Positions 629 to 64,000 of a DNA stretch of 64,000 nucleotides are shown piece after piece. The stretch's first letter is position 1; the number at the start of each line of letters is the position of its first letter. The translations under genes and the position numbers were made by a program. Under the pieces are notes generated by a model that made no database searches, was not told where the DNA came from, and worked only from the letters and a program-made list of their open reading frames with translations. Source of the stretch: an uncultured Candidatus Saccharibacteria bacterium (GTDB lineage Bacteria; Patescibacteriota; Saccharimonadia; Saccharimonadales; CAYUUR01); the NCBI GenBank assembly GCA_964448075.1, contig CAYUUR010000001.1:1785-65784 (forward strand), given 5' to 3'.

Positions 629-705
629 GACTAGTAGTATAGCAATGTTACTATGATTCTTCTTTTGCTTGCGAGTACTACTGTTTTCAATTAGAGTTAT
701 CTGTA

Positions 706-1635: not shown

Positions 1636-1655
1636 AGTGCTATAATACCTACAAG

Positions 1656-2795
1656 ATGAAAGTAGGGTTAGTCTGTCCGTATCATATTTTTCGTGGAGGT
1701 GGCGTCCAGGAATGCGTCTTTGCCATCCAGAAGGAGCTAACCTCACGTGGGCATACAGCCAAGATTATTACTCCCCTGCCTCGTGATGTAACAGATGAAG
1801 ACCGACATAATGAGTCGGTCGTTTTTGTTGGAACATCTGCCAATGTTAAGTCGCCCTTCCATACCACCGCGCAAGTTTCTGTAAGTCTAGACAGTAGTCA
1901 AATGAATACAATGCTCGAAGCAGAGCAATTTGATGTATTACATTTTCACGAGCCATGGGTACCAATCATGTCAAGACAGTTATTGACGCAATCAGGTGCC
2001 GTTAATGTTGCGACGTTTCACGCTAAGCTTCCAGAGACAGTTATGTCAAAGACTATCGAGAAAGTCATCACCCCGTATACCAAATCAGTTCTCAAATACA
2101 TTGATAGTTTCACTGCAGTTTCAGACGCAGCCGCCCAGTATGTCCGTACGGTGACTAATGAGCCGATTTCAATCGTTCCGAACGGTATTGATCTAAAGAA
2201 ATTCAAAGCTGTAAAAGCACGTCCTGTTTCGGATGCGCCTGTTTTAAGCTTCGTTGGACGACTCGAAAAGCGCAAGGGCGTGAAGTACCTCATCAAGGCG
2301 TTCGCACAATATCAAACCGTTAACTCAAAAGCCGAACTAAGGATTGCTGGTGATGGGCCTGACCGTGTCAAATTGGAGCAAATGGTGCACGATGAACGTA
2401 TACGTAATGTCACCTTCCTTGGCTATGTTTCTGATACCGAGAAGCAACAACTATTTGAGGAATCAGATCTGTTTTGCTCGCCGGCTTTATACGGCGAAAG
2501 TTTTGGGATTGTGCTCCTGGAAGCGATGGCAAAGGGATTAGTGACGATTGCCGGCGACAACCCAGGCTATGCTGCTGTAATGGACGGTCGTGGTGCTTTG
2601 TCGCTTGTCAATCCACAAGACACCGAACAGTTTGCACGGCGGATCCAAATTTTGCTTGAAGACGAAGCGACTCGTAAACTTTGGCGTTCATGGGCCCATG
2701 ATTACGTGAGACAGTTTGACTACCCGCTCATTGTTGAGCAGTACCTAAAAGTATATAAACAAGCCTTGGTTCATGAGAAGAAGCGACGTGGCTGA
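1656..2795 (+). CDS. glycosyltransferase family 4 (GT-B)
   Basis: 379 aa; C-terminal E-x7-E motif GESFGIVLLEAMAKG typical of GT4. Confidence 0.8.
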   Translation: MKVGLVCPYHIFRGGGVQECVFAIQKELTSRGHTAKIITPLPRDVTDEDRHNESVVFVGTSANVKSPFHTTAQVSVSLDSSQMNTMLEAEQFDVLHFHEPWVPIMSRQLLTQSGAVNVATFHAKLPETVMSKTIEKVITPYTKSVLKYIDSFTAVSDAAAQYVRTVTNEPISIVPNGIDLKKFKAVKARPVSDAPVLSFVGRLEKRKGVKYLIKAFAQYQTVNSKAELRIAGDGPDRVKLEQMVHDERIRNVTFLGYVSDTEKQQLFEESDLFCSPALYGESFGIVLLEAMAKGLVTIAGDNPGYAAVMDGRGALSLVNPQDTEQFARRIQILLEDEATRKLWRSWAHDYVRQFDYPLIVEQYLKVYKQALVHEKKRRG

Positions 2796-3936
2796 AAAGT
2801 TAAAGATAGCCTATGTCCTTGATGATAGTCTCGATGGTACAGACGGTGTACAGCAGTATGTTCTGACCGTATCTGATTGGATGACTGCACAGGGTCACGA
2901 GTGTCATTTTCTAACGGGGCATACGACCAGAACTGACATTGCAAACGTGCATAGTACTACCAAGGTTCTCAAGGTACGCTTCAACAAGAATAGAATGGCT
3001 ACTCCACTACCTGCAAACAAAAAACGCCTCAGCACACTTCTAAGAGACCAGAGGTTCGACATTGTGCACGTACAAATGCCCTATAGTCCACTTATGGCTG
3101 GACGACTACTGCGCGCCCTACCAGGTAGTACTGCGGCTGTAGGTACGTTCCACATTTTGCCATTTGGGCGCCTTCATACGAGTGCAAATCGGCTACTCGG
3201 TAAAGTGAATAGCCGAACACTGCAGCGATTTGACACCATAGTAGCTGTTTCGCCAGCCGCACAGGAGTTTGCCAAGCATGCCTATGGCGTAAACTCTGAA
3301 GTCTTGCCAAACGCTGTGAATATGCAGAAGTTTCTTACTAAAAAACCGATGCATAATCGGCCACGCAAACTGAGAATCGTTTTCTTAGGGCGACTCGTAG
3401 AGCGTAAAGGGGCGCAAGAACTGCTCACCGCCCTTGATTACCTGCAAACGCACGAACCTGCCTTTATGGCGTCGGTAGAGTGCGTAATGGTGGGCAAAGG
3501 TAAAGACCTGAGACGCCTGCGAAATTACGTATCGAGCCATCATCTAGACCATACGGTCAGCTTTGCTGGGTTTATTGACGAAGCAGGCAAGCCTGCCTTA
3601 CTTGCCAGTGCTGATCTTGCTGTATTCCCAAGTCTTGGCGGTGAAAGCTTTGGGATTGTGCTCATAGAAGCGATGGCAGCGGGTGCTGGTGTAGTGCTTG
3701 GTGGCGATAACCCAGGCTATCGTTCTGTTCTGGGCGAGCGTCCAGAGTTGCTCTGTGATCCGCAGCAGACGCAAGCATTTGCTGAACGCATCAAGCTCTT
3801 GCTCACCGACCAGGAACTTCACAATAGATTGCATGCCTGGCAAACAAGAAAAGTCCATCAATACGACATAGCACAAGTCGGGCCAAAACTGCTATCATAC
3901 TACCAAGCAGCGATAAAGCAGCATAAACGGGGGTAA
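2773..3936 (+). CDS. glycosyltransferase family 4 (GT-B), paralog of preceding gene
   Basis: 387 aa; GESFGIVLIEAMAAG motif; overlaps upstream GT4 by 23 nt, so probably co-translated. Confidence 0.8.
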   Translation: MRRSDVAEKLKIAYVLDDSLDGTDGVQQYVLTVSDWMTAQGHECHFLTGHTTRTDIANVHSTTKVLKVRFNKNRMATPLPANKKRLSTLLRDQRFDIVHVQMPYSPLMAGRLLRALPGSTAAVGTFHILPFGRLHTSANRLLGKVNSRTLQRFDTIVAVSPAAQEFAKHAYGVNSEVLPNAVNMQKFLTKKPMHNRPRKLRIVFLGRLVERKGAQELLTALDYLQTHEPAFMASVECVMVGKGKDLRRLRNYVSSHHLDHTVSFAGFIDEAGKPALLASADLAVFPSLGGESFGIVLIEAMAAGAGVVLGGDNPGYRSVLGERPELLCDPQQTQAFAERIKLLLTDQELHNRLHAWQTRKVHQYDIAQVGPKLLSYYQAAIKQHKRG

Positions 3937-3941
3937 CAACC

Positions 3942-5042
3942 ATGAAGCTCTTCACAAAAAACAGTGGTTTAACCATCAATATATCAAGTCAGGCAATCGT
4001 TCGAGCCGTCGTTATCATTGCAATTACATTATTGGGTTTGCGTTTTCTAACTCAAATCAGCTATCAGCTGACGCTCATCTTTACTGCGGCTTTTTTGGCG
4101 TTAGCGCTTAACCCCGCAGTATCATGGATTGCCGACCGTTTACGAAGTAAAAGTCGGGCTCAAGCGACCGGTATGGCCTATATACTCGTTATTCTTGTTC
4201 TAGGCGCATTTGTGGCTTTTGTGGTACCACCAATTGTGCGTCAAATGGTTGACTTTGCGAAGGACATACCAAGTACGATCAGTACAGTCAGCGACCAGGA
4301 TTCTCCGGTCGGTAATTTTGTACGCCGCAATAATCTGCAGGACGAAATCGATAGTATTAGTCAGGAACTCAAAGGCAAAGTTAACCAAGTACCAAGCACG
4401 GTCATAAGTACGGCGAGCTGGGTTGGTGGTGCCGTGTTCTCTACAATTACCGTGATAGTACTATCATTCATGATGCTTATTGAAGGGCCGCGCTGGTTTG
4501 AACGCCTATGGCAGGTTCAACCGAAAGAAAAACGAAAGCACCGACGTGATCTGGCGCACCGTATGTATCGGGTTGTTACATCGTACGTGAACGGACAGGT
4601 ATTGATTGCGCTCATCGCTTCATTGTTTTCTATGGCAGCTTTACTCATTGCTAGTACTATCACCGATTCATCGATAAATGTGGTGGCTATGGGCGGTATT
4701 GTGTTCTTGCTTGGGCTCATACCGTTAATTGGTAATACCATCGCGGCAGCGATAGTTATACTGGTTTCGTTATTTAGTTCGCTTGCCTTAGCGATAACGA
4801 TGGCAGTGTTCTTTATTGTCTATCAGCAAGTCGAGAATGCTACTCTCCAACCATATATTCAGGCCAAGGGAAATCAACTCACGCCATTAATTGTCTTCGT
4901 AGCAGCGCTGATTGGCGCTGGCTTTGGTGGTATTCTTGGCGCCTTTGTTGCTATCCCAGTAGCTGGTTGTATACGTGTACTTATGGAAGAGCACTTTGGT
5001 GAGTTTGATGCTAACGCAGAGCCAGTCAAACAAACAAAATAG
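3942..5042 (+). CDS. AI-2E (PerM/UPF0118) family transporter
   Basis: 366 aa polytopic membrane protein with AI-2E-like arrangement of TM segments and a central soluble loop. Confidence 0.6.
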   Translation: MKLFTKNSGLTINISSQAIVRAVVIIAITLLGLRFLTQISYQLTLIFTAAFLALALNPAVSWIADRLRSKSRAQATGMAYILVILVLGAFVAFVVPPIVRQMVDFAKDIPSTISTVSDQDSPVGNFVRRNNLQDEIDSISQELKGKVNQVPSTVISTASWVGGAVFSTITVIVLSFMMLIEGPRWFERLWQVQPKEKRKHRRDLAHRMYRVVTSYVNGQVLIALIASLFSMAALLIASTITDSSINVVAMGGIVFLLGLIPLIGNTIAAAIVILVSLFSSLALAITMAVFFIVYQQVENATLQPYIQAKGNQLTPLIVFVAALIGAGFGGILGAFVAIPVAGCIRVLMEEHFGEFDANAEPVKQTK

Positions 5043-15031: not shown

Positions 15032-15205
15032 AGATTAATTACTCCGTTTATTTATATCGACCTGGTGTTTTTTAAGGAGCGTTACCGACTAAAAAAGCCT
15101 TCAGCTTACGCCAAAGACTTTTTACTCGAAAACAAAATTAGATTTTGTGCCTCGGTAGCATTCTTAATCTGATTGCTCAGACGCTACTGTCTTTGGTAAC
15201 TAGAC
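15032..15205 (-). promoter_or_regulatory. rplJ 5' leader with internal attenuator hairpin (L10-leader-like)
   Basis: About 175-nt 5' UTR. On the minus strand, hairpin AGTCTTTGGC-GTAA-GCTGAAGGCT followed by T6 (15091-15119) lies about 60 nt before the ATG. Confidence 0.5.
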
Positions 15206-15208
15206 GCT

Positions 15209-15237
15209 ATTATACCGAAGTTAATCTTCAAAGTCAA
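15209..15237 (-). promoter_or_regulatory. sigma70-type promoter of rplJL
   Basis: Minus strand TTGACT (15232-15237), 17-nt spacer, TATAAT (15209-15214). Confidence 0.6.
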
Positions 15238-49918: not shown

Positions 49919-50326
49919 TTAATATACTCTACAAATTAGTTCGCCACCGAGACGTTGATCTTTGGCGTCTTTGCCGGTCATAATACCTTTTGATGTAGAT
50001 ACGATGACCAGTCCACGTCCGCGCATGATTGTCGGGATCTTGTCAGCTCTTGTGTACATGCGGCGGCCGGGAGTACTCATTCGACTGATCTCAGTGATAC
50101 GTGCGTTTTCAGATGGCTGATTTATGACGATTGACAGCGTTTTGCCTGGTGTGTCTTCGTTCTTTTTAACAGAAACACTCTGAACAAAGTGATTTTGCTT
50201 GAGAATCTCAGCAATTGATTCCTTCATCTTTGAATGAGGCATCGTCACTTCTTGTTTGTTTACATTAATAGCATTGCGGATGCGTGTTAGCATATCTGCA
50301 ACTGGGTCTGTACTTACCATACTCAT
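49919..50326 (-). CDS. rpsH: 30S ribosomal protein S8
   Basis: 135 aa; DPVADMLTRIRNA typical of S8. Confidence 0.96.
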   Translation of the reverse strand: MSMVSTDPVADMLTRIRNAINVNKQEVTMPHSKMKESIAEILKQNHFVQSVSVKKNEDTPGKTLSIVINQPSENARITEISRMSTPGRRMYTRADKIPTIMRGRGLVIVSTSKGIMTGKDAKDQRLGGELICRVY

Positions 50327-50331
50327 ACTCC

Positions 50332-50601
50332 TTACCAGCTCGCTTTCGTTACACCAGGAATCTCACCCTTTGAGGCGTGCTCACGGAAACTTATACGACT
50401 CAAGCCAAAGGTGCGCATATACGCATGAGGACGACCAGTTTCCATACAGCGATTCTTCCATCGTGTTGGCGATGAATTACGGGGGAGCTTGTGCAGACCA
50501 TCGTAATCACCCATTTTCTTTAGCTCAGCACGCTTGTCGGCGTACTGCTTGATCATCTTTTGACGCTTCAAGTCACGTGCAATGATTGATTTCTTAGCCA
50601 T
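50332..50601 (-). CDS. rpsN: 30S ribosomal protein S14 (long, non-zinc form)
   Basis: 89 aa; [15 protein letters not shown]... and C-terminal IPGVTKASW. Confidence 0.95.
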
Positions 50602-51194
50602 TACTTGGCTCCCTTCTCATGTGTTTTCTCAAATGGCATACCAAACTTTTCGAGCAAGGCTCGGCTGTGGTCTGGATTATTTGCCTTGATGACAAATACT
50701 ACTTGCATACCGTGTGGGGTTGTTGTTTCTTCAAAGGTCAGTTCTGGGAATACTGATTGATCAACCAAACCTAAGCTAAAGTTGCCCTGACGGTCAAAGG
50801 CTTTTGCACTCACACCGTGGAAGTCACGCAGTCGTGGGAGGACTATGTTGATCAAGCGGTCGGCAAATTCGTACATTTTTTCACCCCGAAGAGTTACCTT
50901 GAGCCCAATTTTGTTACCTTCGCGCAGTTTGAACGTTGCAATCGAAAGACGTGCAGTGGTTTCAATCGGTTGCTGACCTGTTATTTTGCGAAGTGTGTTT
51001 GCAGCAATTTCCATGAGCTTCTTATCGTCTTTTGCACGTCCAAGACCAACGTTTAGAACGATTTTCTCAAGACGTGGTACCTCATTCGAATTCTTAAGGC
51101 CAAGATCCTTTTGCAAAGCTGCAGCGTACTCATTGTTGTAGAGTACTTTCAGTCGTGCGTTTGTGGTTGCTACTTGTTTTGTTGCGGTAGCCAT
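50601..51194 (-). CDS. rplE: 50S ribosomal protein L5
   Basis: 197 aa; L5-like, spc order. Confidence 0.95.
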
Positions 51195-51520
51195 TACTTG
51201 ATCTCCTTGCCGCTTTTCTTAGCGATACGAACTTTGGTGCCTGCTTTGTCAAAGCTGTAGCCAATACGGGTTGGCTTCTTTGAGGTTGGGTCAACCAAAG
51301 CTACTTTTGATACCCAGATTGGTTTTGTCAGTTCGATAATACCGCCCTGAGGGTACTGCTTGTTTGGCTTCTGGTGCTTCTTAACGATGTTAATGCCTTC
51401 TACTGTGACTTTGTTGTCGCTTGGGTGTACGGCAACGACTTTACCAGTCTTGCCTTTGTACTTACCAGCCAACACCACAACGGTGTCATTCTTCTTCAAT
51501 CGAATCTTATAAAGCGTCAT
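51194..51520 (-). CDS. rplX: 50S ribosomal protein L24
   Basis: 108 aa; KOW motif ([20 protein letters not shown]). Confidence 0.95.
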
Positions 51521-51888
51521 TATAGTACCTCCGGAGCGAGTGAGATAATCTTGGCGTAACCCATGTCGCGGAGTTCACGAGGAACTGGCCCGAAGATACG
51601 AGTTGCCTTAGGTAGTTTATCGTCACCAATGATAACTGCAGCGTTATCATCAAACTTAATTGTTGAACCGTCTTTGCGCTTGATTGGGTAGCTTGTACGT
51701 ACCACAACCGCGCGAACAACAGTCTTCTTTTTGACGTTGCCGCTAGGGTTAGCTACTTTAACGGTAGCAACGATAGTGTCGCCAACGCGAGCGTAACGCT
51801 TGCGTGTGCCGCCAAGAACACGAATGCAAAGGATTTCCTTAGCACCGCTGTTGTCACATACGATTAATCGTGATTCTTGTTGGATCAT
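51520..51888 (-). CDS. rplN: 50S ribosomal protein L14
   Basis: 122 aa; [18 protein letters not shown] typical of L14. Confidence 0.97.
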
Positions 51889-52154
51889 ACGTCTTCCCCT
51901 TTGGACTCACGGATAACTGGACGTTCTACTACTTTTGTAAGTGTAAACCGCTTACGTGCACTGATTGGTCGAACTTCGCTAATAATGACTTTGTCGCCTT
52001 CTTGCGCTTCGTTCTTTTCATCGTGTGCCATGAATTTCTTACTGACAGAATACTGCTTCTTATAGATTGGGTGTGTCATGCGAGTAACGACGGTGACGGT
52101 AATGGTCTTGTCGGCTTTGCTTGATGACACAACACCAGTAAATGTTTTAGCCAT
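51885..52154 (-). CDS. rpsQ: 30S ribosomal protein S17
   Basis: 89 aa; S17-like, S10/spc order. Confidence 0.95.
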
Positions 52155-52354
52155 TACATGTTCTCCTTCGTTAGCTGCTCGCCCAAAACGGTAAGCATAC
52201 GCGCCAAGTCTTTACGCTTGTGTCGGATGACCTTAACGTTCTGCACTTCACCACCGTGCATACGGCGTCGTAGTTCAGCGATCTCTTCGCGTAGTTTAGT
52301 GCTTTCCTTGGTCAGGTCTGCTGTTGATAATTTACGGATTTCTACAACTTTCAT
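52154..52354 (-). CDS. rpmC: 50S ribosomal protein L29
   Basis: 66 aa; L29-like helical hairpin sequence. Confidence 0.93.
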
Positions 52355-52358
52355 AGTG

Positions 52359-52772
52359 TTACGCCTCCTCCCTTACGAGGAACTTGGTTTTAATTGGCAA
52401 CTTGTGGGCAGCCAATCGCATTGCTTCACGGGCTACATCTTCTGGTACACCTTGCATTTCAAACAAGATTGTCCCCGGACGGACCTTAGCTGCAAAATAC
52501 TCTGGGTTTCCTTTACCACTACCCATCTTTACGTCCTGTGGCTTACGAGTCACTGGAGTATGAGGGAAGATGCGGATCCAGATCTTTCCACCACGCTTGA
52601 TATGACGAGTCATAGCTTGACGTGCAGCCTCGATCTGGCGAGATGTGATACGCTCTGAGCCTTGTGACTGTAGTGCGTATTCACCAAAGGCAATCGCGTT
52701 TCCACTAGTAGCTACTCCGCGGATCTTGCCCTTGCGTACCTTTCGGTACTTTGTTCGTTTTGGCATTAGCAT
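52359..52772 (-). CDS. rplP: 50S ribosomal protein L16
   Basis: 137 aa; [11 protein letters not shown] typical of L16. Confidence 0.97.
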
Positions 52773-52773
52773 G

Positions 52774-53403
52774 TTAGGCTACCTCACCCTTGTAGATCCA
52801 TACTTTAACCCCAATAATGCCTTTTTGCGTCGTGGCTCGTGCTGCAGCGTAGTCGATATCTGCTCGAATGGTATGTAGTGGAACACTACCAGCGACTTCT
52901 TTTTCAAGTCGTGACATGTCAGCACCATTAAGTCGACCAGCGACTTCGATACGAATACCCTTAGCGCCAGCACGCATAGTGTTTGCAGAAGACTGCTTAA
53001 TAGCACGACGGAATGAGATTCTTCGTTCTAGTTGGTTAGCAATGTTTTCAGCAACAAGCTTGGCGTACATTTCTGGCTTCTTGATTTCTTCGATGTTAAC
53101 ACGAGCAGGAACTCCGTAGATCTTTTCGATAGCAGCCTTCAGCTCTTGTGCACCAGAACCACCACGACCAATCACAACACCAGCTTTTGCTGTGGTGACT
53201 GTTACAGTGACAAGGTTTGGTGATCGTTCAATATCTACCTTGTTAATTGCTCCACGTGAGCCAACTTTGTTGACAATCAAGCGTCGAACTTCAAGATCTT
53301 GACGAAGGTAGTTTGCATAATCTTTCTTGGATGCGAACCACTTGCTGCGCCAGTCCTTATTGACTTGAAGTCGCATGCTGATTGGGTTTACTTTTTGTCC
53401 CAT
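52774..53403 (-). CDS. rpsC: 30S ribosomal protein S3
   Basis: 209 aa; [14 protein letters not shown] domain. Confidence 0.97.
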
Positions 53404-53786
53404 TACTTCTTCTCCTCAGCTTTCTTAGCTTGCGCAGGTTTCTTAGGTGCACGCTGCTCACCATCAACAATTACAGTGATATGAGATGTGCGACGTTGGA
53501 AAGGAAGGGCACGACCATGTGCTGCAGGACGGTATCGCTTGTAACGAACACCAGGGGTGACGGTAATTGCAGTAATAGTCAGCGTGTCGGCCTTGTAGTT
53601 ATGGTTGTTATCAGCATTTGCCTTGGCAGACTTGATAGCCTTGATAACTGGTTCAGCTGCACGACGTGGTGTGTGCTGCAGGATGGTGATGGCGTCTTCA
53701 ACAGAGCGACCACGAACCAAGCTAGCTACAACACCAACCTTACGTGGGCTCATACGAACACCTTTACTAATAGATTGGACAGACAT
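53403..53786 (-). CDS. rplV: 50S ribosomal protein L22
   Basis: 127 aa; L22-like with a short basic C-terminal tail. Confidence 0.95.
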   Translation of the reverse strand: MSVQSISKGVRMSPRKVGVVASLVRGRSVEDAITILQHTPRRAAEPVIKAIKSAKANADNNHNYKADTLTITAITVTPGVRYKRYRPAAHGRALPFQRRTSHITVIVDGEQRAPKKPAQAKKAEEKK

Positions 53787-53788
53787 TG

Positions 53789-54064
53789 TTATTTGCCTCC
53801 CTTAGCAAGCTTACCGCCATGTGAGCGGAACTTGCGGGTAGGTGCAAATTCACCGAGCTTATGACCAACCATGTTTTCGGTAATGAAAACAGGAACATGC
53901 ACTTTACCGTTGTGAACAGCAATAGTTTTGCCAACAAACTCAGGACTAATTGTGCAAGCACGTGCCCAAGTCTTAATGATAGTACGGTCTTCGTTGCCCA
54001 AAGCGTTTACTTTCTTAGCAAGCTTTGGATCGACAAATGGACCTTTCTTTAGTGATCGACTCAT
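53789..54064 (-). CDS. rpsS: 30S ribosomal protein S19
   Basis: 91 aa; [12 protein letters not shown] typical of S19. Confidence 0.97.
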
Positions 54065-54073
54065 AATGCTACC

Positions 54074-54910
54074 TTATTTCCTCTTCGCCTGATGACGGGT
54101 TCTTACAATAAACTTACTGCTCGTCTTGCGACTACGTGTCTTGAAACCAAGTGTCTTCTGACCCCAAGGCGTACGTGGATCGCGACCAATACCGTGTGCA
54201 CCACCGTCACCACCACCGTGCGGATGATCAGCTGCGTTCATAGCAATACCACGAACGCCTGGACGCTTACCCTTGAGGCGATTACGGCCAGCTTTACCAA
54301 TCTTGATGTTCTGATGTTGTACGTTACCAACGGTTCCGAGACTCGCAGTACATGTCAGATGGACTAAGCGGACTTCGCCACTAGGCAGTTTAACTTGTGC
54401 ATAGTCACCTTCTTTTGCAGCAAGCTGAACACTAGCACCAGCAGAGCGTGCTAGCTGGGCACCACGTCCTGGCTGTAATTCAACAGCGTGGAGAATACTA
54501 CCAACCGGGATGTTCTTGAGAGGAAGACGGTTACCAAGTTCTATGGCTACTTCTTCGCCAGACTCAATCTTCTGGCCAACCTGCATGTTAGCGGCTGCCA
54601 GAATGTAGTGATATACGTTATCGCTGTCTTTGATACGAGCAATACGAGCAGAACGGTTCGGGTCATACTCAATGTGTTCAATCGTAGCAACTGTACCAGG
54701 GGCTAGCTTGAAGTTAACCTTACGGTAGAACTTCTTTGCGCCACCACCACGATGACGAGTAGTAATGCGGCCTTGGTTGTTACGCCCACTCTTTTGCTTC
54801 TTTACAACGAGAAGTGAACGAACAGGCTTGCGTGTAGTGATTTCGCTCATATCCTGCGTGGTCATACCGCGCTGTGCAGGAGTAACTGGCTTCATCTGTT
54901 TAATGGCCAT
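54074..54910 (-). CDS. rplB: 50S ribosomal protein L2
   Basis: 278 aa; L2 signature [14 protein letters not shown]. Confidence 0.97.
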
Positions 54911-55278
54911 TACTTGGTCTCCTTTTTAGCCTTCTTAGCGGCTTTTTCAGCTTGCTTAGCTTCAGCGTCGGCAGCTTCATCAATTGCATCAAATACAGGT
55001 ATTTTGTCGCCTTTTGCTACGCGGACGTAGGCTTTTTTGATGTCACTGCGCTTACCGGCAACTGCTCGGCTTCGCTTACGATAGCTCTGCTTGACTTTGC
55101 CTTTAGCAACAATAATGTTTACTTCTTCAACCTTAACGTCAAACTGAGCAGCAACAGCTGCAGCTACCATGACTTTATTAGCGCTGGTAGGCACATCAAA
55201 AACGTAGGTGTTATGTAGTTTGCTCAAAGCGTAAGTCTTTTCACTCATGCGTGGCTTCAATGCTAGTTCTTTACTCAT
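54910..55278 (-). CDS. rplW: 50S ribosomal protein L23 with Ala/Lys-rich C-terminal tail
   Basis: 122 aa; L23 core plus an ~25-aa tail. Confidence 0.93.
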
Positions 55279-55934
55279 TTTGCAGCCTCATCTTTCTTTG
55301 CCGGAGCTGTAAGCCAAGCTACAACTTCCTTGAGTGCTCCAGCAGTAATCAGGATCATATCTGCATTCAGAACATCATATACGTTTAGGTAGCTACTCTG
55401 GGAGACCTTTACGTCACGGAGATTACTGGTCGCACGGACAATTTCTGGAGTTTTCTGCTCAGTGACAATAAGCGTTCGACGCATAGCACCAACCTTATCA
55501 AGTAATTTGACGGCTTCTGAGGTTTTGCCGTCTTTGATAGCAAAGGCTTCAATGACTGCAATCTTGTTTGCTTCTGCAGCAACGCTCAACGCTTGGCGGA
55601 TTGCCTGGCGCTTTGCAGCTGTTGGCATTCGCTTGGTGTAGTTTTCGTTACCTGTTGGGCCGAAAACGATACCACCACCGCGCCAAATTGGGTTACGGCT
55701 TGAACCGAAACGTGCGCGGCCAGTACCCTTTTGTTTCCAAGGCTTGCGGCCACCACCACGGACATCGCCGCGGTTTTTAACATTAGCTGTGCCGAGTCGG
55801 CCGTTAGCAAGATACGCTACGTATGCTTGCTTAAGTAGATCATGGTTAGCTGTGTCGACTGCAAAGACTGCTTTGTCGAGTTTTGCAGCAGTTGTAGCTT
55901 TAGTGCCGGATTTGGTAAATGTTGTTACTGCCAT
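55275..55934 (-). CDS. rplD: 50S ribosomal protein L4
   Basis: Start set at ATG 55932-55934 ([10 protein letters not shown]), one nt after the rplC stop; L4 loop [16 protein letters not shown]. Confidence 0.95.
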
Positions 55935-55935
55935 A

Positions 55936-56547
55936 TTATGCTCCTTGTACCACAACTATGCTTTTGCGTGGACCTGGCACTGCACCGACGACGCCGATGA
56001 TATTGTGCTCTGTGTCTACGAGTGCAATCTTTAGGTTTGTGACGGTAACGCGTTCGTGACCCATTTGGCCGGCCATTTTCTTACCCTTGAAGATGCGCTG
56101 TGGGTACATAGAACCGATAGAACCAACCTTACGGGTGTTTCCTTTACCACCATGTGTTTTGCGCTGTCGGTGGAAGTTGTGACGCTTGATCGTTCCTGCC
56201 CAGCCTTTACCTTTGCTCGTGCCAGTGACTTGTACCGTGTCGCCAATTGAAAAGACCTCTGGTGTGAGCGTTTCGCCAACCTTGAGGTCTTCTGTGATTT
56301 CTGGAACGCGAATTTCGCGTACGATTTTTGGTGTTACTTTTGATTGCTTGAAATGTCCTGCCTGGGCTTTGCCCATATTCTTGGCAGTTTCAAAACCGAG
56401 CTGCACAGCTGTATAGCCGTCAACATCTGTGGTTTTGACTTGCGTAATAACGCAAGGACTAGCGGAAAGCAAGGTAACAGCAGTCATAGTACCGTCATCA
56501 GAGATGGTACTGGTCATGCCAACCTTTCGTGTAATAAGGGCTTTCAT
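55936..56547 (-). CDS. rplC: 50S ribosomal protein L3
   Basis: 203 aa; [13 protein letters not shown] and [13 protein letters not shown] typical of L3. Confidence 0.97.
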
Positions 56548-56759
56548 AGTGTCTTATAACCTTTTCGTTACAGGTACAGTGCATGAAAATACTTGATGGC
56601 CGGTGGTTTCTACCTCTGTAGACCTACCAATTCATCAAGTTCATGATGTACACAAAGTTTGATATACCATAACAGATTAGCAGAAAACACCCACTACTGT
56701 CAATATGTTGTCTATTCTACATTTAATTCTGAAAGATTTTGGGTGGATCTTTTTAAAGG

Positions 56760-57035
56760 CTATATAACAATATGGAGGCCGAGGGGGAGCCAGAAGCTAA
56801 TGAAGGCCGACATCAAGAGAATAGCGTAGCCAATCTTTTTGTCGAGCTGTAAACGCTCGTGACGCAGTAATACTACACCAGCTAGCAGACCAATTGGTAT
56901 GGGTATTTGTGCTCCACTACTAGTGACAATGCGTAGCCAGAACGATCCTAGTACGAGGTAAACGACGAGTTTTAGAAAGTATATACTGTCTACTTCTTTG
57001 GTTCGTGTTTGTTTTGTTTTTGTTTTACTCGGCAT
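56760..57035 (-). CDS. hypothetical small membrane protein (91 aa) between rpsJ and rplC
   Basis: Three hydrophobic segments after a basic N-terminus; no SD. Confidence 0.4.
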   Translation of the reverse strand: MPSKTKTKQTRTKEVDSIYFLKLVVYLVLGSFWLRIVTSSGAQIPIPIGLLAGVVLLRHERLQLDKKIGYAILLMSAFISFWLPLGLHIVI

Positions 57036-57083
57036 TTAGTTAGTATAACAGCTTACGCTTTCTAAACCAGTTGGATTGTTCTA

Positions 57084-57779
57084 TTAACTATTGGTAGGAC
57101 CGGTCAAATAATGATGCAAAGTTTCATCGCTCAGTACATCGTTTGCTAGTACTTCTGCCTCATGTCGCATGGCTCTCGTTGCACTATCCAACCTGAAAAC
57201 TCGGCTGAAGTTGCCAAACTGAGCCTTATCTACCTCATGGCTGAGCCTCTCGGTATGTGCGATCGAGGCCATATACGCGATAGAATGTGAATACACACGC
57301 GCTGTACTCCTTCGGTAACTACTGTGCGGTTCGGACCCAACGAGTGCCAGTAGTTTCCAGTGCCCACGACCGGCGATATCTTGAGCTGACGAACGAGCAT
57401 TTGCCATGATAGTATCCTCAATCGTTTCATGTGTTGCCACTGACTGAAGAAGCCCATTGACGGTGCTGAAGTAGCGGCGCCGTTCACTGATACTGGCCAT
57501 CATTTTTCTTCCGAGCATGAGTCCAACTATTGCGCCAGTGACGAATGCAGCTCCAGATTGTGACATCAACGTCGGGTCGTCTTCATGTTTTTCTGATGCC
57601 CCACTCAATGTTACACGTAAATAATATGGCACCTTCTGCCAGTTGTAATTTGCATACTCAATACTACCCTTTTTTGCAACAGCATCAATAATCGACTCGC
57701 AAGCATTGTCAAATTCAAACTGAACGTTATCTAATGCTCGTTGAGTTGGCATTGTTCCAAGAATTTCTAAATCAGACAT
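57084..57779 (-). CDS. hypothetical protein (231 aa) between rpsJ and rplC
   Basis: Longest ORF in the 1.29-kb rpsJ-rplC spacer; ATG start, no SD; one central hydrophobic segment; no recognisable domain. Confidence 0.45.
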
Positions 57780-57833
57780 GGGTAGTATGTTATTTATGTT
57801 CGGTGTATGTAGTTACTTCAGCGTAACTGACAA

Positions 57834-58175
57834 CTACATCTTTATTTCGGCATCACAGCCGGCAGGAAGCGAAAGATTCATTAGTGAATCAATTGTCTTT
57901 GGTGTTGGCTCTAACACATCGATAATACGTTTGTGTACACGCATTTCAAACTGTTCACGGCCTTTTTTATAAACGTGCGGGCTCTTAACAACAGTGTAAG
58001 TTGTTTTCTTGGTTGGAAGTGGGATTGGCCCAGCAATTGTTGCACCGGTACGGATTGCTGTATCAACAATCTGCTTAGCAGACTGATCGATTACTTTGTG
58101 ATCATATGCCTTAAGACGGATACGGATCTTTTGCTTACCGTCTTTCTTTTCTAGTGGTTTTTTGGCGTCAGCCAT
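57834..58175 (-). CDS. rpsJ: 30S ribosomal protein S10
   Basis: 113 aa; [17 protein letters not shown] typical of S10. Confidence 0.97.
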
Positions 58176-58386
58176 GATGTGCTCCTTTCATGAGCACTAG
58201 GGCGGAGGGGGAAGGATGAAGGGTGGAGGTTTTCCTCATTCCCTTTTGCCTTAGCCCTTAGCCCTAGTCTGTGATGTAACATCTCCGTAAGTGCTATAGA
58301 GAGCCCTGTACGACGACTTTTAGTCATCACGATTAGTTTGTAATACAATCCTACAACAATAATCAATTTTTGTGAAGGATCTTCTG
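58176..58386 (-). promoter_or_regulatory. long structured rpsJ 5' leader
   Basis: 211 nt. Hairpin GTGCTC-ATGAAAG-GAGCAC overlaps the SD (58179-58197). A pyrimidine tract with two CCTCC faces the tandem GGGCTAAGGGCTAAGG. Confidence 0.4.
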
Positions 58387-58821
58387 TTAAGTGATACTAG
58401 ATGCAGCCTCTAATGTGCGCTGCCTTTCACTTCGCTCAATGCCATAGCGTTTATCAAGTGTATGTCGCGGCCCGCCTTGAAAAGCATTATATGCCGATAG
58501 TGCGTAGTTAAGTGCGCGCTTACCAACTAAGTGACACCTGTCATATCTGCCGTAGTAGTATCCACTGGTATCGATATTGAAGTATCTCTCTTGTCGCAGC
58601 GTTTCAACTTCATGAAGTGTTACACCTTCATCATCTGCGAGCTGCCTGAATATGTAGCCACTAAGTTCATATGCAACATCATTGGCGAGGGCTATTTCAC
58701 CGTTGTCGATAAGTTCTGTAGCTTTCTGAATAGTTTCAGCTAAACCACATTCTTGACTAGCAATCTCCTCAATACTAGTTCGTATGAGTCCCGCCTGGCT
58801 ATCACGCGAATAATAGGTCAT
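58387..58821 (-). CDS. hypothetical protein (144 aa) between tuf and rpsJ
   Basis: ATG with SD AAGGAGA; no recognisable domain. Confidence 0.5.
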   Translation of the reverse strand: MTYYSRDSQAGLIRTSIEEIASQECGLAETIQKATELIDNGEIALANDVAYELSGYIFRQLADDEGVTLHEVETLRQERYFNIDTSGYYYGRYDRCHLVGKRALNYALSAYNAFQGGPRHTLDKRYGIERSERQRTLEAASSIT

Positions 58822-58963
58822 GTTTTCTCCTTAAGATCGTCTGAAATATATACAAAAGTAGCGATAAACGCAAGCACAAGCATAATCAGAACACTTTGCG
58901 TGGTGGTTTTAGATAGAGCTCGGGTTTTTCAAGCGTGTTATGCAGTGTTAGTAACCGATAATG

Positions 58964-58998
58964 AAAAAGGAGCTGTACTTAGCGTATAGCTCCTTTTT
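58964..58998 (-). terminator. intrinsic terminator after tuf (bidirectional shape)
   Basis: AAAAAGGAGCT ... AGCTCCTTTTT, 50 nt after the tuf stop. Confidence 0.65.
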
Positions 58999-59047
58999 CT
59001 GTCGCAGGTCTTATCCTGCAGTGTGCCCTGGTAAAGGGGCGAGATCG

Positions 59048-60229
59048 CTACTTGTTGATCTTGGTAACAACACCAGCACCTACGGTACGGCCACCTTCGC
59101 GGATAGCGAAGCGTAGACCCTGTTCCATAGCGATTGGTGCAAGCAGTTTAACCTTGAAGGTTACTGTGTCGCCCGGCATGACCATTTCTTTGTCAGCTGG
59201 GAGTTCAACCTCACCAGTTACGTCCGTAGTACGGAAGTAGAACTGTGGCTTGTAGCCCTTGAAGAATGGTGTGTGACGACCGCCTTCATCCTTAGTGAGG
59301 ATATAGACTTCTGCATCAAACTCAGTGTGAGGAGTGATTGAACCAGGCTTAGCCAAAACTTGGCCGCGCTCGATGTCATCACGCTCAATACCACGAAGCA
59401 AGATACCAGCGTTATCACCAGCTTGTCCTTGATCAAGAGATTTCTTGAACATTTCGATGCCAGTTACAACTGATTTCTTGGTGTCGCGGACACCAGTAAT
59501 TTCAACTTCGTCGTTAACTTTAACGATACCCTGTTCAATACGGCCAGTAGCAACAGTGCCACGACCTTTGATTGAGAAGACGTCTTCGATAGCCATCATG
59601 AAAGGCTTGTCGAGGTCGCGCTTAGGCTCTTCAACATAGTCATCCATAGCTTTGATCAGTTCCATGATTGCATCTTCGTTAGCTGCATCGCCTTCGAGTG
59701 CCTTGGTAGCTGAACCCTTGATGATTGGAGCATCTTCGTCAAAACCGTTCTTAGCGAGCAGTTCACGAATGTCCATTTCAACTAGTTCGATGAGTTCTGG
59801 ATCAGCAAGATCCATCTTGTTCATGAATACAAGAATCTTAGGTACGCCCACTTGCTTAGCAAGAAGTACGTGTTCACGAGTCTGAGGCAACGGACCGTCG
59901 TTAGCGGCAACCACGAGGATAGCACCATCGATCTGCGCAGCACCGGTAATCATGTTCTTCACATAGTCGGCGTGACCTGGCATGTCAACGTGCGCGTAGT
60001 GGCGCTTTTCTGATTCATATTCTTGGTGAGAAGTCGCAATGGTAATACCACGTGCTTTCTCTTCTGGGGCGTTGTCAATCTGATCATACGCAATTGGTTT
60101 GTTAACGTCGCTCGGTAGCTTTTTAGCTAGTACAGCGGTGATAGCAGCCGTAAGTGTCGTTTTACCGTGGTCAACGTGACCCATAGTACCTACGTTTACA
60201 TGCGGCTTGCTTCGGTCAAAATCTGCCAT
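59048..60229 (-). CDS. tuf: elongation factor Tu
   Basis: 393 aa; [22 protein letters not shown] GTPase motifs. Confidence 0.98.
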
Positions 60230-60380
60230 GTAGATTTGTCTCCTATTATTAGTTCATTATTTTATCGCGGTCCATGTCACATCAATAGCAACGCCCTCTC
60301 GCGAGTACATCAATAATCTTACCTGTTAGTCGGTCTTTTGTAAAGAGTTTTAACGTCAGTTTAGGAAGTGCACAAGTATA

Positions 60381-60791
60381 TTATTGAGCTGCCAATATTT
60401 GCACACAAAACCGTTCTTCTAGTTCTTGTTGTGCAGTCATGGTTCTATCAAGAGCTAGACGCTCATAGTCATTCACCATGAATTGAGGCATTTTTACAGT
60501 AGGAATAGATTCGTTGTCTGATGATACAGGTAAACCAAGCCAGATATACTGATTACTTACAGCAGTACTACAGCGTCGAAGCGTATCAGCACATTCTCGA
60601 TCTGGAATATAGTGAGCAGCTTCAATCTGTCTTTTGACCAGTTGTCTACTTAGCCACAAACCCATTGTGAACGTTGACTGTTCCCGATCGTAGCTCGTAT
60701 ATGCAAAGTAAATAACTGCATGACCACTGTAGCCTGGCTCTATGCTACGGAATCGTTCGGCGCTAATCTCGGTAAACTTGTCGCGAAGCAT
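60381..60791 (-). CDS. hypothetical protein (136 aa) between fusA and tuf
   Basis: ATG 5 nt after the fusA stop (TAG TAAGC ATG); no recognisable domain. Confidence 0.5.
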   Translation of the reverse strand: MLRDKFTEISAERFRSIEPGYSGHAVIYFAYTSYDREQSTFTMGLWLSRQLVKRQIEAAHYIPDRECADTLRRCSTAVSNQYIWLGLPVSSDNESIPTVKMPQFMVNDYERLALDRTMTAQQELEERFCVQILAAQ

Positions 60792-60796
60792 GCTTA

Positions 60797-62884
60797 CTAC
60801 TTGGCGTTTTTGGCAATGATAGCTTCTGTGACGTTTGGTGGAACGTCTTCGTAGTGGTCAAGCTCCATACTTGAACTCGCACGACCTTGCGTCATTGAAC
60901 GCAGGTTGGTGGTGTAACCAAACATTTCACCAAGTGGTACAAAGGCAGTGATTTCTTTAACGCCGCTGGAAAGGTCTTCCATAGACTCGATGCGTCCACG
61001 CTTACTGTTGAGGTCACCAATGACATCGCCCATGAACTCTTCAGGTGTTACGGCAACAACCTTCATGATAGGTTCAAGGAGTACTGGCTTAGCAACCTTC
61101 ACACCAGCTTGCAGTGCCATAGAGCCAGCAATCTTAAAGGCCATTTCGTTTGAGTCAACGTCGTGGTAGCTTCCGTCGTACAGTTCTGCCTTGATATCAA
61201 CAACAGGGTATCCGGCGATAACACCGTTAGACATTGCCTCGATGATACCTTGCTCAACTGGCTTGATGTATTCACTTGGGACAACTCCACCCTTGATAGA
61301 GTTAATGAACTCAAAGCCTTTACCAGCTTCGTTCTGAGACAGGCGAAGCCAAACGTGACCGTACTGACCACGTCCACCAGATTGCTTGACGAACTTACCT
61401 TCAATTTCAACAGCGTCTTTGCGGATAGTTTCACGGTAGGCAACCTGTGGTTGACCAATGTTGGCCTCGACATTGAACTCGCGCTTCATACGGTCAACGA
61501 GAATTTCGAGGTGAAGCTCACCCATACCAGAGATAATTGTCTGGCCTGTTTCTTCGTCAACACGAACACGGAAAGTTGGATCTTCCTCTGCAAGACGCTG
61601 CAATGCTAGGCTCATCTTCTCTTGGTCAGCCTTTGTCTTTGGTTCGATTGCAATGCTGACAGGCGGTTCAGGGAATGTAATGCTCTCAAGCACAATAGGA
61701 TCATTGATTTCACAAAGTGTGTTACCAGTTGTTGTACCCTTAAGGCCAACGATGGCAGCGATATCACCAGCACCGATTTCAGTAACGTCTTCACGCTTGT
61801 CAGCTTGCAGACGTACAATACGGCCGATGCGTTCTTTGCTACCCGTAGAACTGTTCAGAATATATGACCCAGCTACGAGCTTACCTGAGTAAACACGGAA
61901 GTAAGCCAGCTTACCAACAAAAGGATCAGTTGTGATCTTAAAGGCCAGCGCTGCAAAAGGATCAGATTCGCTTGGCTTTCGCTCAATTTCATCACCAGTC
62001 TTTGGGTGCGTGCCCCAGGTAGAACCAACGTCAAGTGGGCTTGGCAGGTAGTCATTAACCATATCGAGTACTTTTTCTACGATAACGCCACGGCCATCGC
62101 CCCCAGTTACGGCAAAGAACTTACCTGATAGCACAGCGGTACGGATAGCTTGCTTGATTTCATCAGTTGACAGACCTTCTTCACCGACTTCAAAGAACTT
62201 CTCCATCATGGCTTCGTCTTCTGCGACGGCATTTTCTATCAGCAGGCTGCGGTATTTCTTGGCCTTGTCGAGCATATCTTCTGGGATTTCACCCTCAATC
62301 AGCTCTTTATCGGTGAAGTCTTTGTAGGTGTATGCCTTCATTTCGACGAGGTCAATTACACCGTTGATGGCTTGTTCAAAACCAATTGGCAAATGCACAG
62401 GGAATGCGTGTTTGCTGAGGCGGTTATGGATAGAGTCGAGAGACTTGTAGAAGTCACCACCCGTTTGGTTGATTTTGTTGATGAAACAAATACGTGGGAC
62501 TTTGTACTTGTCAGCTTGGCGCCAGACAGTTTCAGATTGTGATTCAACACCCATCTTACCGTCAAAGACCACACACGCACCATCAAGCACACGTAGTGAA
62601 CGCTCAACTTCAACGGTGAAGTCGATGTGACCAGGAGTATCGATAATGTTAATCTGGTTACTCTTCCAGTAACAAGTCACTGAAGCAGCCACGATAGTAA
62701 TACCGCGCTCGCGCTCTTGTGCCATCCAGTCGGTTGTTGTCTCACCTTCGTGCACTGCACCGATCTTGTGGTTCAAACCAGTACGGTAGAGGATACCTTC
62801 TGTAGTGGTAGTTTTACCGGCATCAATGTGCGCGATAATACCGAGGTTCCTAATATCTTTCATTGGTGTTGTTTTTGCCGCCAT
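60797..62884 (-). CDS. fusA: elongation factor G
   Basis: 695 aa; AHIDAGKTTTTE, DTPGHIDF motifs, five-domain EF-G length. Confidence 0.98.
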   Translation of the reverse strand: MAAKTTPMKDIRNLGIIAHIDAGKTTTTEGILYRTGLNHKIGAVHEGETTTDWMAQERERGITIVAASVTCYWKSNQINIIDTPGHIDFTVEVERSLRVLDGACVVFDGKMGVESQSETVWRQADKYKVPRICFINKINQTGGDFYKSLDSIHNRLSKHAFPVHLPIGFEQAINGVIDLVEMKAYTYKDFTDKELIEGEIPEDMLDKAKKYRSLLIENAVAEDEAMMEKFFEVGEEGLSTDEIKQAIRTAVLSGKFFAVTGGDGRGVIVEKVLDMVNDYLPSPLDVGSTWGTHPKTGDEIERKPSESDPFAALAFKITTDPFVGKLAYFRVYSGKLVAGSYILNSSTGSKERIGRIVRLQADKREDVTEIGAGDIAAIVGLKGTTTGNTLCEINDPIVLESITFPEPPVSIAIEPKTKADQEKMSLALQRLAEEDPTFRVRVDEETGQTIISGMGELHLEILVDRMKREFNVEANIGQPQVAYRETIRKDAVEIEGKFVKQSGGRGQYGHVWLRLSQNEAGKGFEFINSIKGGVVPSEYIKPVEQGIIEAMSNGVIAGYPVVDIKAELYDGSYHDVDSNEMAFKIAGSMALQAGVKVAKPVLLEPIMKVVAVTPEEFMGDVIGDLNSKRGRIESMEDLSSGVKEITAFVPLGEMFGYTTNLRSMTQGRASSSMELDHYEDVPPNVTEAIIAKNAK

Positions 62885-62887
62885 TCT

Positions 62888-63346
62888 CTATCCCTCTTTC
62901 TGTTCGTTCGTAATGCTCTTGTATTGTGTTGCGAGTGTTTCTAATCGTTGTTGAGTACCTTCAGCACCATCTGCCATTTGGCTTCTGTAGGCTAGGCTGT
63001 ATGCAAGGGTGTCCCAGACGGCCTCTTCGGCTGCGAAAACATCATTAGTAGACAGGTCGAGTGCTGAATCAAGATCAACACGTACACTGTCCCTAACGAC
63101 AGACTTGGCCAGCGCCATATACAACTCTGAAGGCGAATCAACGGATTCTTTCTCAAAGAGTTCTTCAGCAAGCTGCATCCATCTGGTTTTGTTTATTGCA
63201 ATCTCAGCCACTCTATTGTGCCACACCGCTTTCTGCATCTTGTGGCACGCCAGCGTATGGTGACGCTTCGTACAAGAAGTCAACATTTGCAACTGGTCCG
63301 TAGTCTCTGAAGACTTCGATAGCGTCATCTCGGACATCGACGTCAT
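62888..63346 (-). CDS. hypothetical acidic protein (96-152 aa) between rpsG and fusA; start uncertain
   Basis: Stop lies 3 nt before the fusA ATG. The longest form overlaps the 99-aa ORF by 134 nt; internal ATGs at 63238 and 63178. Confidence 0.45.
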   Translation of the reverse strand: MTSMSEMTLSKSSETTDQLQMLTSCTKRHHTLACHKMQKAVWHNRVAEIAINKTRWMQLAEELFEKESVDSPSELYMALAKSVVRDSVRVDLDSALDLSTNDVFAAEEAVWDTLAYSLAYRSQMADGAEGTQQRLETLATQYKSITNEQKEG

Positions 63347-63512
63347 CTACCACCCAAGCACGGACAGTGTCAAAGCCTTCTACCTGGAATGGATTCTGTG
63401 GTCGATACCTTAGTGCATCGACTACAAACAGCTCACCACAAGCAGCTTCATTGAACATTCCTTGGTCGCCGATACTGAGGAGATCTGCTGATACTTTTGT
63501 TTCAAACGCCAT
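63213..63512 (-). CDS. hypothetical acidic protein (99 aa), translationally coupled to rpsG
   Basis: ATG 2 nt after the rpsG stop (TAA TC ATG); no recognisable domain. Confidence 0.5.
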   Translation of the reverse strand: MAFETKVSADLLSIGDQGMFNEAACGELFVVDALRYRPQNPFQVEGFDTVRAWVVDDVDVRDDAIEVFRDYGPVANVDFLYEASPYAGVPQDAESGVAQ

Positions 63513-63514
63513 GA

Positions 63515-63991
63515 TTATCTCGCAAAGTGAGCAAAGGCTCGGTTAGCTTCAGCCATCTTGTGTGTGTCTTCACGCTTCTTAACGGCTGTTCCTGTGTTGT
63601 TGTAGGCGTCCATAAGCTCTGCAGCAATGCGGTCTTCCATGCTCATACCTTTTTTGGCGCGAGCAGCAGCAACAAACCACATCATGGTGAGGTGATTCTG
63701 GCGTTGGCCCTTAACTTCAAAAGGAATCTGGTAGTTCGCACCACCAACGCGGCGAGAACGAGTCTCAACCTGCGGCTGAATGTTCTTCATAGCTTGTTCA
63801 AACACATCAAGTGGGTTCTGCACCTTGAGCTTATCGGCAGCTTTTTGCATACCACCATAGACAAGTCGTTCAGCAAGCTGCTTCTTACCGTTAAGCATGA
63901 CGCGGTTAATAAGACGCTGGACCTGTACAGAGTTGTACACGCGGTCAGCTGGGATATCTCGCACGAGTGATTTGGTTACTTTTCTAGGCAT
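63515..63991 (-). CDS. rpsG: 30S ribosomal protein S7
   Basis: 158 aa; MPRKVTKSLVRDIPADRVYNS typical of S7. Confidence 0.97.
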   Translation of the reverse strand: MPRKVTKSLVRDIPADRVYNSVQVQRLINRVMLNGKKQLAERLVYGGMQKAADKLKVQNPLDVFEQAMKNIQPQVETRSRRVGGANYQIPFEVKGQRQNHLTMMWFVAAARAKKGMSMEDRIAAELMDAYNNTGTAVKKREDTHKMAEANRAFAHFAR

Positions 63992-64000
63992 TTTGGACTC

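Follow-up and report, generated by a model that had tools for sequence, protein, structure and literature searches.

A lineage-wide split between rpsJ and rplC in Saccharibacteria, with a candidate regulatory leader RNA upstream of rplC

Introduction

In cyanobacteria and plastids, and likewise in archaea, the gene for ribosomal protein S10 (rpsJ) is joined to the str/tuf cluster and not to the gene for L3 (rplC), and the L3-led block is separate. Adjacency of S10 and L3 is not universal, since these other gene orders join S10 to the tuf cluster. Here we describe the rpsJ–rplC junction of an uncultured Candidatus Saccharibacteria bacterium, as found in a stretch of 64,000 nucleotides (nt; NCBI GenBank assembly GCA_964448075.1, contig CAYUUR010000001.1, positions 1,785 to 65,784 of the forward strand), which is the window referred to throughout. 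An earlier reading of the window, made from the sequence alone (the sequence-only reading), had regarded S10–L3 adjacency as near-universal and as cut in this genome. We report on the gap in this and related genomes, on the promoter and leader RNA that precede rplC, on a second leader upstream of rpsJ, and on the genes that lie between the two.

Three described leaders and one promoter offer points of comparison. In Escherichia coli, L4 causes attenuation at a hairpin and a run of uridines (U-run) in the S10 leader (PMC3616713). A candidate L4 ribosomal protein leader (r-leader) has been reported in Archaeoglobi upstream of rplC-rplD-rplW-rplB (Eckert and Weinberg, 2020, PMC7247131). RLC-47-1, an rpsJ motif of Peptostreptococcaceae, is a structured candidate leader in the 5′ untranslated region (UTR) of the S10 gene (NAR 2024, PMC11109978). 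The rpsJ promoter of TM7x has been put to successful use on its own (PMC10633639). In the literature, neither the rpsJ–rplC split of Saccharibacteria nor either of the leaders was found described.

The split between rpsJ and rplC

A search with the S10 protein retrieved loci of 80 species representatives, nearly all of which bear the label Saccharibacteria or Saccharimonadia, and tuf, rpsJ and rplC were placed by tblastn in 69 of them. The rpsJ–rplC gap in these 69 loci has a minimum of 137 nt, a median of 1256 nt and a maximum of 5398 nt, and is never shorter than 60 nt. Seven loci have a gap of 137–201 nt without an open reading frame (ORF), while the remaining loci hold one to eight ORFs. 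In the window the distance is 1286 nt (56548–57833), between rpsJ at 57834–58175 (Pfam PF00338, E-value 1.6e-35; led by a Shine–Dalgarno sequence (SD), with AGGAG upstream) and rplC at 55936–56547 (Pfam PF00297). All genes of the region lie on the minus strand according to the ORF calls for the 64-kb window. The coordinates and ORFs given by the sequence-only reading were exact, and its S10 and L3 identities were confirmed with Pfam.

Because all 69 species-representative loci have a gap of at least 137 nt, the split is ancestral to the lineage; it is general in Saccharibacteria and is no event of this genome. The supposed cutting of a universal junction therefore does not stand, as the gap is never canonical in the 69 loci. 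The synteny comparison that had been proposed as a check was made, and no relative with intact rpsJ–rplC adjacency was found among them; a recent insertion is not supported.

The rplC promoter

The 212 nt between the upstream gene (ORF91, described below) and rplC (56548–56759) are non-coding. For 73 loci, the 230 nt that precede rplC were placed in an alignment. Between rplC and the gene upstream, whichever that is, these loci have ~160–250 nt of non-coding sequence, and the alignment contains a near-invariant block, GTAGAAT-N3-CAAC-N3-TTGACA-N15-TGnTA(A/C)TCT. A perfect or 5/6 TTGACA, a fixed spacer of 17–18 nt and TGnTAnnnT are found in ~70 relatives. In the window these elements occupy 56674–56703 (−35 TTGACA at 56703–56698, TGC at 56682–56680, −10 TAATCT at 56679–56674), with a −35/−10 spacing of 18 nt counted to TAATCT, and this is the single site in the 64 kb that fits TTGACA-N15-TGnTAnnnT. 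The block at 56674–56720 (47 nt) is 100% identical to that of locus L081 and 70% identical to that of L085; over the 39 nt that adjoin it upstream, identity is only 59%. The promoter candidate of the sequence-only reading, TTGACA at 56698–56703 with TAATCT 18 nt on, is thus one that relatives conserve.

These elements indicate that the genes from rplC onward have their own strong promoter of the sigma-70 type with an extended −10. The gene heads a tightly packed block, rplC-rplD-rplW-rplB-..., in which downstream genes overlap or abut. It had been proposed that the operon consists of rpsJ alone plus a unit from rplC onward. This holds as a transcriptional separation of rpsJ from rplC, which has its own promoter, and fails as an event in this genome. 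A second candidate, the extended −10-like TGGTATATC, is present at 56669–56661, but relatives do not conserve its TG. Because it lies downstream of the conserved −10, it belongs to the transcribed leader and was rejected as a second promoter.

Directly 5′ of the −35, at 56707–56720, lies the GTAGAAT-N3-CAAC element, which is conserved in most relatives and has its only good match in the window here. It may be a UP-like element, a site for an activator, or the −10 box of a second promoter in tandem. Some species have it as part of a GTAGA...TCTAC palindrome. The similar TGTAGGAT is a −10-like box upstream of rpsJ.

A structured leader RNA linked to rplC

Between the predicted promoter and rplC lies a 5′ leader of ~120 nt (56548–56673), which contains an irregular hairpin at 56591–56640 with a conserved, bulged AGGUC/GAAACC core and a U-run at 56586–56589, 38 nt before the rplC ATG. 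The leader consensus has GGUAU..., next ACUUGGYG ... GGYAGGUC, a variable apical stem, ... GAAACCRC ... CRCCAAG, and next (C/U)AUUUUUAUG. A stem CTTGATG/CATCAAG around a GGT/ACC helix had been noticed from the letters alone; it is recovered in the minimum-free-energy fold (z = −2.3) and in the covariation of 60–70 relatives. RNAalifold predicted 11 pairs in two helices, eight of them with compensatory changes. Cells of the alignment were paired in 93.6–94.1% of cases vs 82.5–82.9% after shuffling, and 73–90 cells carried double changes vs 23–27 in shuffles. None of 500 shuffles matched the observed values on any measure, and paired cells fell to 29–55% in slid-register controls.

A covariance model of the leader gave a single hit in the window (56582–56673, minus strand, 75 bits). 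In 70 of 83 sources it likewise gave exactly one hit at each locus, in every case immediately 5′ of rplC; the hits include sequences outside the seed alignment. Of the 70 hits, 61 have a U-run of 4–6 no more than 10 nt after the stem, and the hairpins have a median energy of −18 kcal/mol. A simple terminator scan missed the element because its stem is both bulged and long. Linkage was tested independently by running a degenerate core pattern on JGI metagenome contigs, which yielded 120 matches. In 80 of these, rplC follows on the same strand at most 400 nt downstream (median 28 nt after the U-run), and a further five are truncated by the contig end. Matches without rplC number 35; 33 of them are not covariance-model hits, approximately the number of chance matches expected. 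The two real leaders without rplC are found at a contig end and at a contig junction with phage-like genes.

One metagenome contig, L156 (WBZM01014868.1), carries in positions 1–4344 a 228-amino-acid (aa) ORF, a homologue of ORF91 and a copy of the rplC leader, followed by phage-like genes on the opposite strand. The phage-like ORFs in place of rplC encode a 559-aa primase-helicase-like protein and a 450-aa protein. This arrangement may be a prophage/phage junction or an assembly chimera.

The leader sequence is under extreme constraint. Its 126 nt show zero substitutions relative to L081 and L085, and in the same comparisons the rate of synonymous substitution (dS) is 0.16–0.33 for rplC and 0.39–0.85 for rpsJ. 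The most conserved positions are unpaired, bulged or bulge-flanking nucleotides (AGGUC, GAAACC). It matches no Rfam 15 family in a cmscan search of 50000–64000 with E-values up to 10. Elsewhere in the window, the Rfam L10_leader (RF00557) is found at 15081–15214 on the minus strand with 58 bits, above the gathering threshold, and Rfam therefore detects some r-leaders in this genome. As in r-leaders, a covarying structure occupies the 5′ UTR of a ribosomal protein operon across species, and the geometry is that of an attenuator, with a stable stem and a close U-run between the promoter and the first ORF. The rplC leader is a well-supported new candidate for a cis-regulatory RNA, exclusively linked to rplC.

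Possible roles of the rplC leader

We think it probable, with some reserve, that the S10 operon of this lineage consists of two separately promoted, leader-controlled units, and that the rplC leader is an autogenous attenuator. The TTGACA-N15-TGC-TAATCT promoter would drive the leader, which would fold into the bulged hairpin followed by the U-run. A downstream-encoded ribosomal protein present in excess would then bind the AGGUC/GAAACC core, and its binding would favour termination at the U-run, resulting in autogenous attenuation of transcription. By analogy with E. coli, L4 would be the likeliest ligand, with L3, the nearest encoded protein, as the alternative. We favour an autogenous attenuator because of the anatomy (promoter, hairpin, U-run, first gene) and because of the precedents in E. 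coli and Archaeoglobi.

The same hairpin and U-run could instead be a constitutive intrinsic terminator of the upstream unit, with conservation reflecting insulation only. The element has stem-plus-U-run geometry, lies downstream of co-directional genes in most loci, and is accompanied by no other terminator-like site between rpsJ and rplC in the window. Its position downstream of the conserved promoter, however, places it inside the rplC transcript. It is also kept where the upstream neighbour lies on the other strand (L001, L017, L028, L065 and L073), and therefore acts on the rplC transcript and does not merely end the upstream gene. The concentration of conservation in the unpaired and bulged AGGUC and GAAACC fits a binding site, and all leader positions are invariant between genomes that have diverged elsewhere. 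We regard a constitutive terminator as distinctly improbable.

Several points count against attenuation as well. The transcription start, 3′ ends, U-run termination and any regulation at the leader are deduced from sequence, and L4 or L3 is proposed as ligand by analogy only. The −35/−10 spacing exceeds the optimum by one nucleotide. The U-run begins 2–3 nt past a stem that is bulged and moderately stable, and such a hairpin would be inefficient as a terminator without a helper. At E < 0.01 the model had no hit in six loci that bear rplC (L044, L055, L061, L072, L076 and L078). The covariance model also finds nothing in an E. coli rRNA operon, and the one loose motif match there, at nt 603–635 of the 23S rRNA, is within chance expectation; these E. 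coli comparisons did not establish mimicry of rRNA by the leader core. Finally, the U-run is only 16–40 nt from the start codon in most loci, and translational control or an effect on RNA stability is possible for that reason.

This last point leads to another explanation, in which the leader RNA would be bound by a protein or ligand and act post-transcriptionally, on rplC translation, on mRNA stability or as a processing site, and the U-run would contribute to the binding site or provide a single-stranded landing pad and would be no terminator. Many r-leaders are translational (PMC7247131), and the conserved UUUUUAUG exceeds what a terminator needs. Direct occlusion is disfavoured, however, because the hairpin lies anywhere from 16 to >200 nt from the SD or start codon, with an intervening sequence that varies as well, and because no conserved pairing with the SD was seen. 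We consider a post-transcriptional role unlikely, and attenuation remains the reading that we prefer.

The rpsJ leader

The region upstream of rpsJ is also conserved, with a −10-like TA(C/G)AAT followed by a structured leader, GUGAUGACUAAAAGUC–hairpin–GAUGUUACAUCAC, at 58267–58334. In an alignment of 44 sequences, 10 of 16 predicted pairs have compensatory changes. Cells were paired in 96% of cases vs 79% after shuffling, and 126 double-change cells were observed vs 42.7 expected, a value reached by 0 of 500 shuffles. The cmscan search of 50000–64000 (E-values up to 10) gave no Rfam match to this leader either. We propose it as a candidate S10 leader and as a separate element from the rplC leader.

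The distance from the leader motif to the rpsJ start codon is 8–233 nt among relatives. In the window, an insertion of ~85 nt with purine and pyrimidine runs (58176–58266, minus strand) lies between the motif and the SD, and the region contains a 28-nt imperfect inverted repeat (58196–58223 / 58241–58268). A promoter-like TTCACA-17-TAGGAT is found upstream of the leader at 58376–58348.

The sequence-only reading had expected the split to affect autoregulation of the L4 type. Feedback control was probably not lost, because S10 and the L3 block each have a promoter and a conserved structured leader of their own.

ORF91 and probable leaderless transcripts

Two ORFs, ORF231 (57084–57779) and ORF91 (56760–57035), separate rpsJ from the rplC promoter region in the window. 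Both had been called orphans; this applies to ORF231, at genus level, and not to ORF91. The ORF91 family occupies the rpsJ–rplC gap in 35 of the 69 species loci and comprises ~98 clusters at 50% identity among 1.84 billion protein representatives. As had been predicted, the 91-aa protein has three transmembrane (TM) segments, with hydrophobic stretches at residues 18–38, 39–57 and 68–91, and its AlphaFold2 (AF2) model has three helices with a predicted local distance difference test score (pLDDT) of 76. No fold match was found in a PDB search, and nothing significant in Pfam, NCBIfam, PHROGs or PADLOC. Residues W33, P45, P47, G49, G53, D65, K67, P84 and G86 are invariant, and the ratio of nonsynonymous to synonymous rates (dN/dS) is 0.04–0.11, as under purifying selection. 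By homology, ORF91 is assigned to a Saccharibacteria-wide family of small three-TM proteins.

An extended −10, TGTTATACT (57042–57050), ends 6 nt upstream of the ORF91 ATG, which has no SD. A strict search pattern, TGnTAnnnT at 3–12 nt (mostly 6–7 nt) before the start, is matched by 19 of 34 family members, and those that fail it mostly have close variants of the extended −10. ORF91 is probably transcribed from an extended −10 promoter of its own, and an mRNA that is leaderless or nearly so is suggested by the end of the −10 only 6–7 nt before the ATG.

Neither ORF has an SD-like 4/5-mer at −18 to −4, in agreement with the sequence-only reading, and an SD is equally absent from 39 of 82 gene-like ORFs in the window, about half. 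The −10 boxes 6–7 nt before their starts suggest an explanation for the missing SDs of ORF231 and ORF91, and the pattern suggests that leaderless mRNAs are common in this genome. Several other ORFs of the window have a TGnTAnnnT ending 6–10 nt before the start, for example at 1656, 9622(−), 12583(−) and 37088(−).

ORF231

ORF231 (231 aa) starts 54 nt past the rpsJ stop codon, as described earlier. Its homologues form only four clusters in 5.8 billion proteins, with 66–72% identity, and on every contig that includes the upstream flank the homologue is found ~55 nt past rpsJ. Pairwise dN/dS is 0.10–0.14, and ORF231 is therefore a real gene; from these comparisons it is best described as a genus-level orphan under purifying selection. 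The earlier claim that both ORFs are coding is in this way upheld, with purifying selection in both. A profile search of the 5.8 billion proteins and an iterative hidden Markov model search over 3530 ORFs of all fetched loci revealed no further homologues, and Pfam, NCBIfam, PHROGs and PADLOC no significant family. The 228-aa ORF at the equivalent position in L156 was considered as a relative and is not detectably related (hhalign probability 1.3%).

Prediction gives an all-alpha protein with a single GxxxGxxxG segment, similar to a glycine zipper and of borderline hydrophobicity, at about residues 75–92 (Kyte–Doolittle 19-residue maximum 1.54). Its AF2 model has a pLDDT of 37 and was not used for a fold search. 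Profile comparison with the PDB gave non-significant matches only, among them a local resemblance to a helix of the RelSeq HD domain (E-value 0.59), which was rejected as evidence.

The spacer between rpsJ and ORF231 (57780–57833), read directly from the sequence, contains a small AT-rich hairpin at 57811–57828 without a U-run, and the simple terminator scan reported no terminator-like site in it. A −10-like TAACAT at 57787–57792 ends 7 nt ahead of the ORF231 ATG. L081 and L088 have a TAnnnT at the same distance before the homologue, and the one of L085 is imperfect; with the hexamer in three of four lineages, the evidence is weaker than for ORF91.

The rpsJ–rplC slot

Gap content is highly variable across the lineage, with 119 of 206 ORFs being singletons. 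Among gap ORFs of at least 80 aa in the 69 loci, 125 are co-directional and 27 lie on the opposite strand. A Pfam scan of 100 larger gap ORFs found ordinary enzymes, NUDIX being the commonest family (13 of 100), together with HAD hydrolases, adenosine deaminase, CTP synthase, guanylate kinase, PfkB kinase, M29 peptidase and beta-lactamase-family proteins. The junction is an insertion-tolerant slot that holds variable genes. Over L001–L080 the cargo is enriched in NUDIX hydrolases and other nucleotide-metabolism enzymes, and one slot ORF carries a reverse-transcriptase domain.

The neighbouring junctions are expanded lineage-wide too, with medians of 549 nt for fusA–tuf and 551 nt for tuf–rpsJ. 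In the window, fusA (60797–62884) and tuf (59048–60229) are separated by ORF136 (136 aa, 60381–60791), and tuf and rpsJ by ORF144 (144 aa, 58387–58821). In L081, a homologue that is 73% identical to ORF136 occupies the corresponding place (dN/dS 0.10), and ORF144 has no homologue in any fetched locus. Neither has a significant match in Pfam, NCBIfam, PHROGs or PADLOC.

The variability of the slot, the restriction of ORF231 to four close lineages and its dS of 1.6–1.9 vs 0.15–1.0 in neighbouring genes would all fit the view that a recent and possibly mobile insertion had cut the S10 operon in this genome, bringing in two orphan ORFs and forcing rplC to acquire a makeshift promoter. Yet the two genes are already split in all 69 relatives, the rplC promoter and leader are conserved lineage-wide, and the ORF91 family is widespread. 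When a mobile origin was checked, as the sequence-only reading had proposed, the insert showed no flanking direct or inverted repeats beyond short, chance-like ones, and no target-site duplications or terminal repeats. Its composition is typical (GC 0.46 for ORF231 and 0.44 for ORF91 vs a gene mean of 0.46 ± 0.03; GC at third codon positions likewise), and scans with Pfam, PHROGs and PADLOC gave no transposase, integrase, phage or defence match. We consider a recent insertion very improbable. The ORF231 gene alone may be a genus-level gain into the pre-existing slot.

Allelic replacement of ORF231 by recombination, as an explanation of its high dS, was set aside as speculation, ORF136 having a similar dS. 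Codon-bias effects on the ORF231 value are possible, because ORF136 is similar and the flanking ribosomal protein genes reach 0.5–1.0 vs L085.

A wider reading of the locus is tentative, and we lean against it: the single S10 control point would have been replaced by two unrelated RNAs, the rpsJ leader and an rplC attenuator responsive to L4 or L3, and the insulated slot between them would be a recombination-anchored site for swapping accessory genes. If so, naturally competent epibionts would exchange NUDIX and nucleotide-salvage enzymes and small membrane proteins there.

Significance and comparison with known systems

S10 and L3 serve as syntenic markers for binning and placing candidate-phyla genomes, and up to 5 kb of variable DNA between them in Saccharibacteria affects the extraction of marker blocks and checks of contig continuity. 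The rplC and rpsJ leaders are candidate new RNA families in a lineage with almost no described RNA regulation, and both provide a testable case of ribosomal protein feedback rewiring after an operon split. Saccharibacteria are now genetically tractable (PMC10633639), which makes it possible to use and test the promoter, the leader and the insertion-tolerant slot directly.

The E. coli S10 leader resembles the rplC leader in being the 5′ leader of an operon that encodes L3, L4, L23 and L2, and in having a hairpin followed by uridines. In E. coli, termination occurs at these uridines and a conserved loop or bulge carries the protein-binding determinants (PMC3616713), as is proposed for the rplC leader. 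The E. coli leader differs in its place upstream of rpsJ, in its five hairpins, of which HG overlaps the S10 start, and in its confinement to Gammaproteobacteria. The Saccharibacteria element, by contrast, lies in the window between ORF91 and rplC, 1.2 kb downstream of rpsJ, consists of a single bulged hairpin and resembles no Rfam 15 model, and rpsJ has a different leader of its own. The candidate L4 r-leader of Archaeoglobi is likewise directly upstream of the rplC block where S10 is outside the operon (PMC7247131), but it is archaeal, was rated uncertain by its authors, and was compared here only via the Rfam 15 cmscan, which gave no match. RLC-47-1 parallels the Saccharibacteria rpsJ leader, and not the rplC leader, as a lineage-specific candidate leader in the S10 5′ UTR; it belongs to another phylum and was compared with the rpsJ leader only via the negative Rfam scan.

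In gene order, Saccharibacteria resemble cyanobacteria, plastids and archaea: rpsJ comes after tuf, and the block led by L3 forms a unit of its own. They differ in that rpsJ is also set apart from tuf, with a promoter and leader of its own, and in the variable cargo of the junctions. Ribosomal protein leaders, attenuators, leaderless genes and conserved genes with variable loci between them are all known kinds of feature, whereas the RNA motifs, the placement of a leader upstream of rplC and the lineage-wide slot are new.

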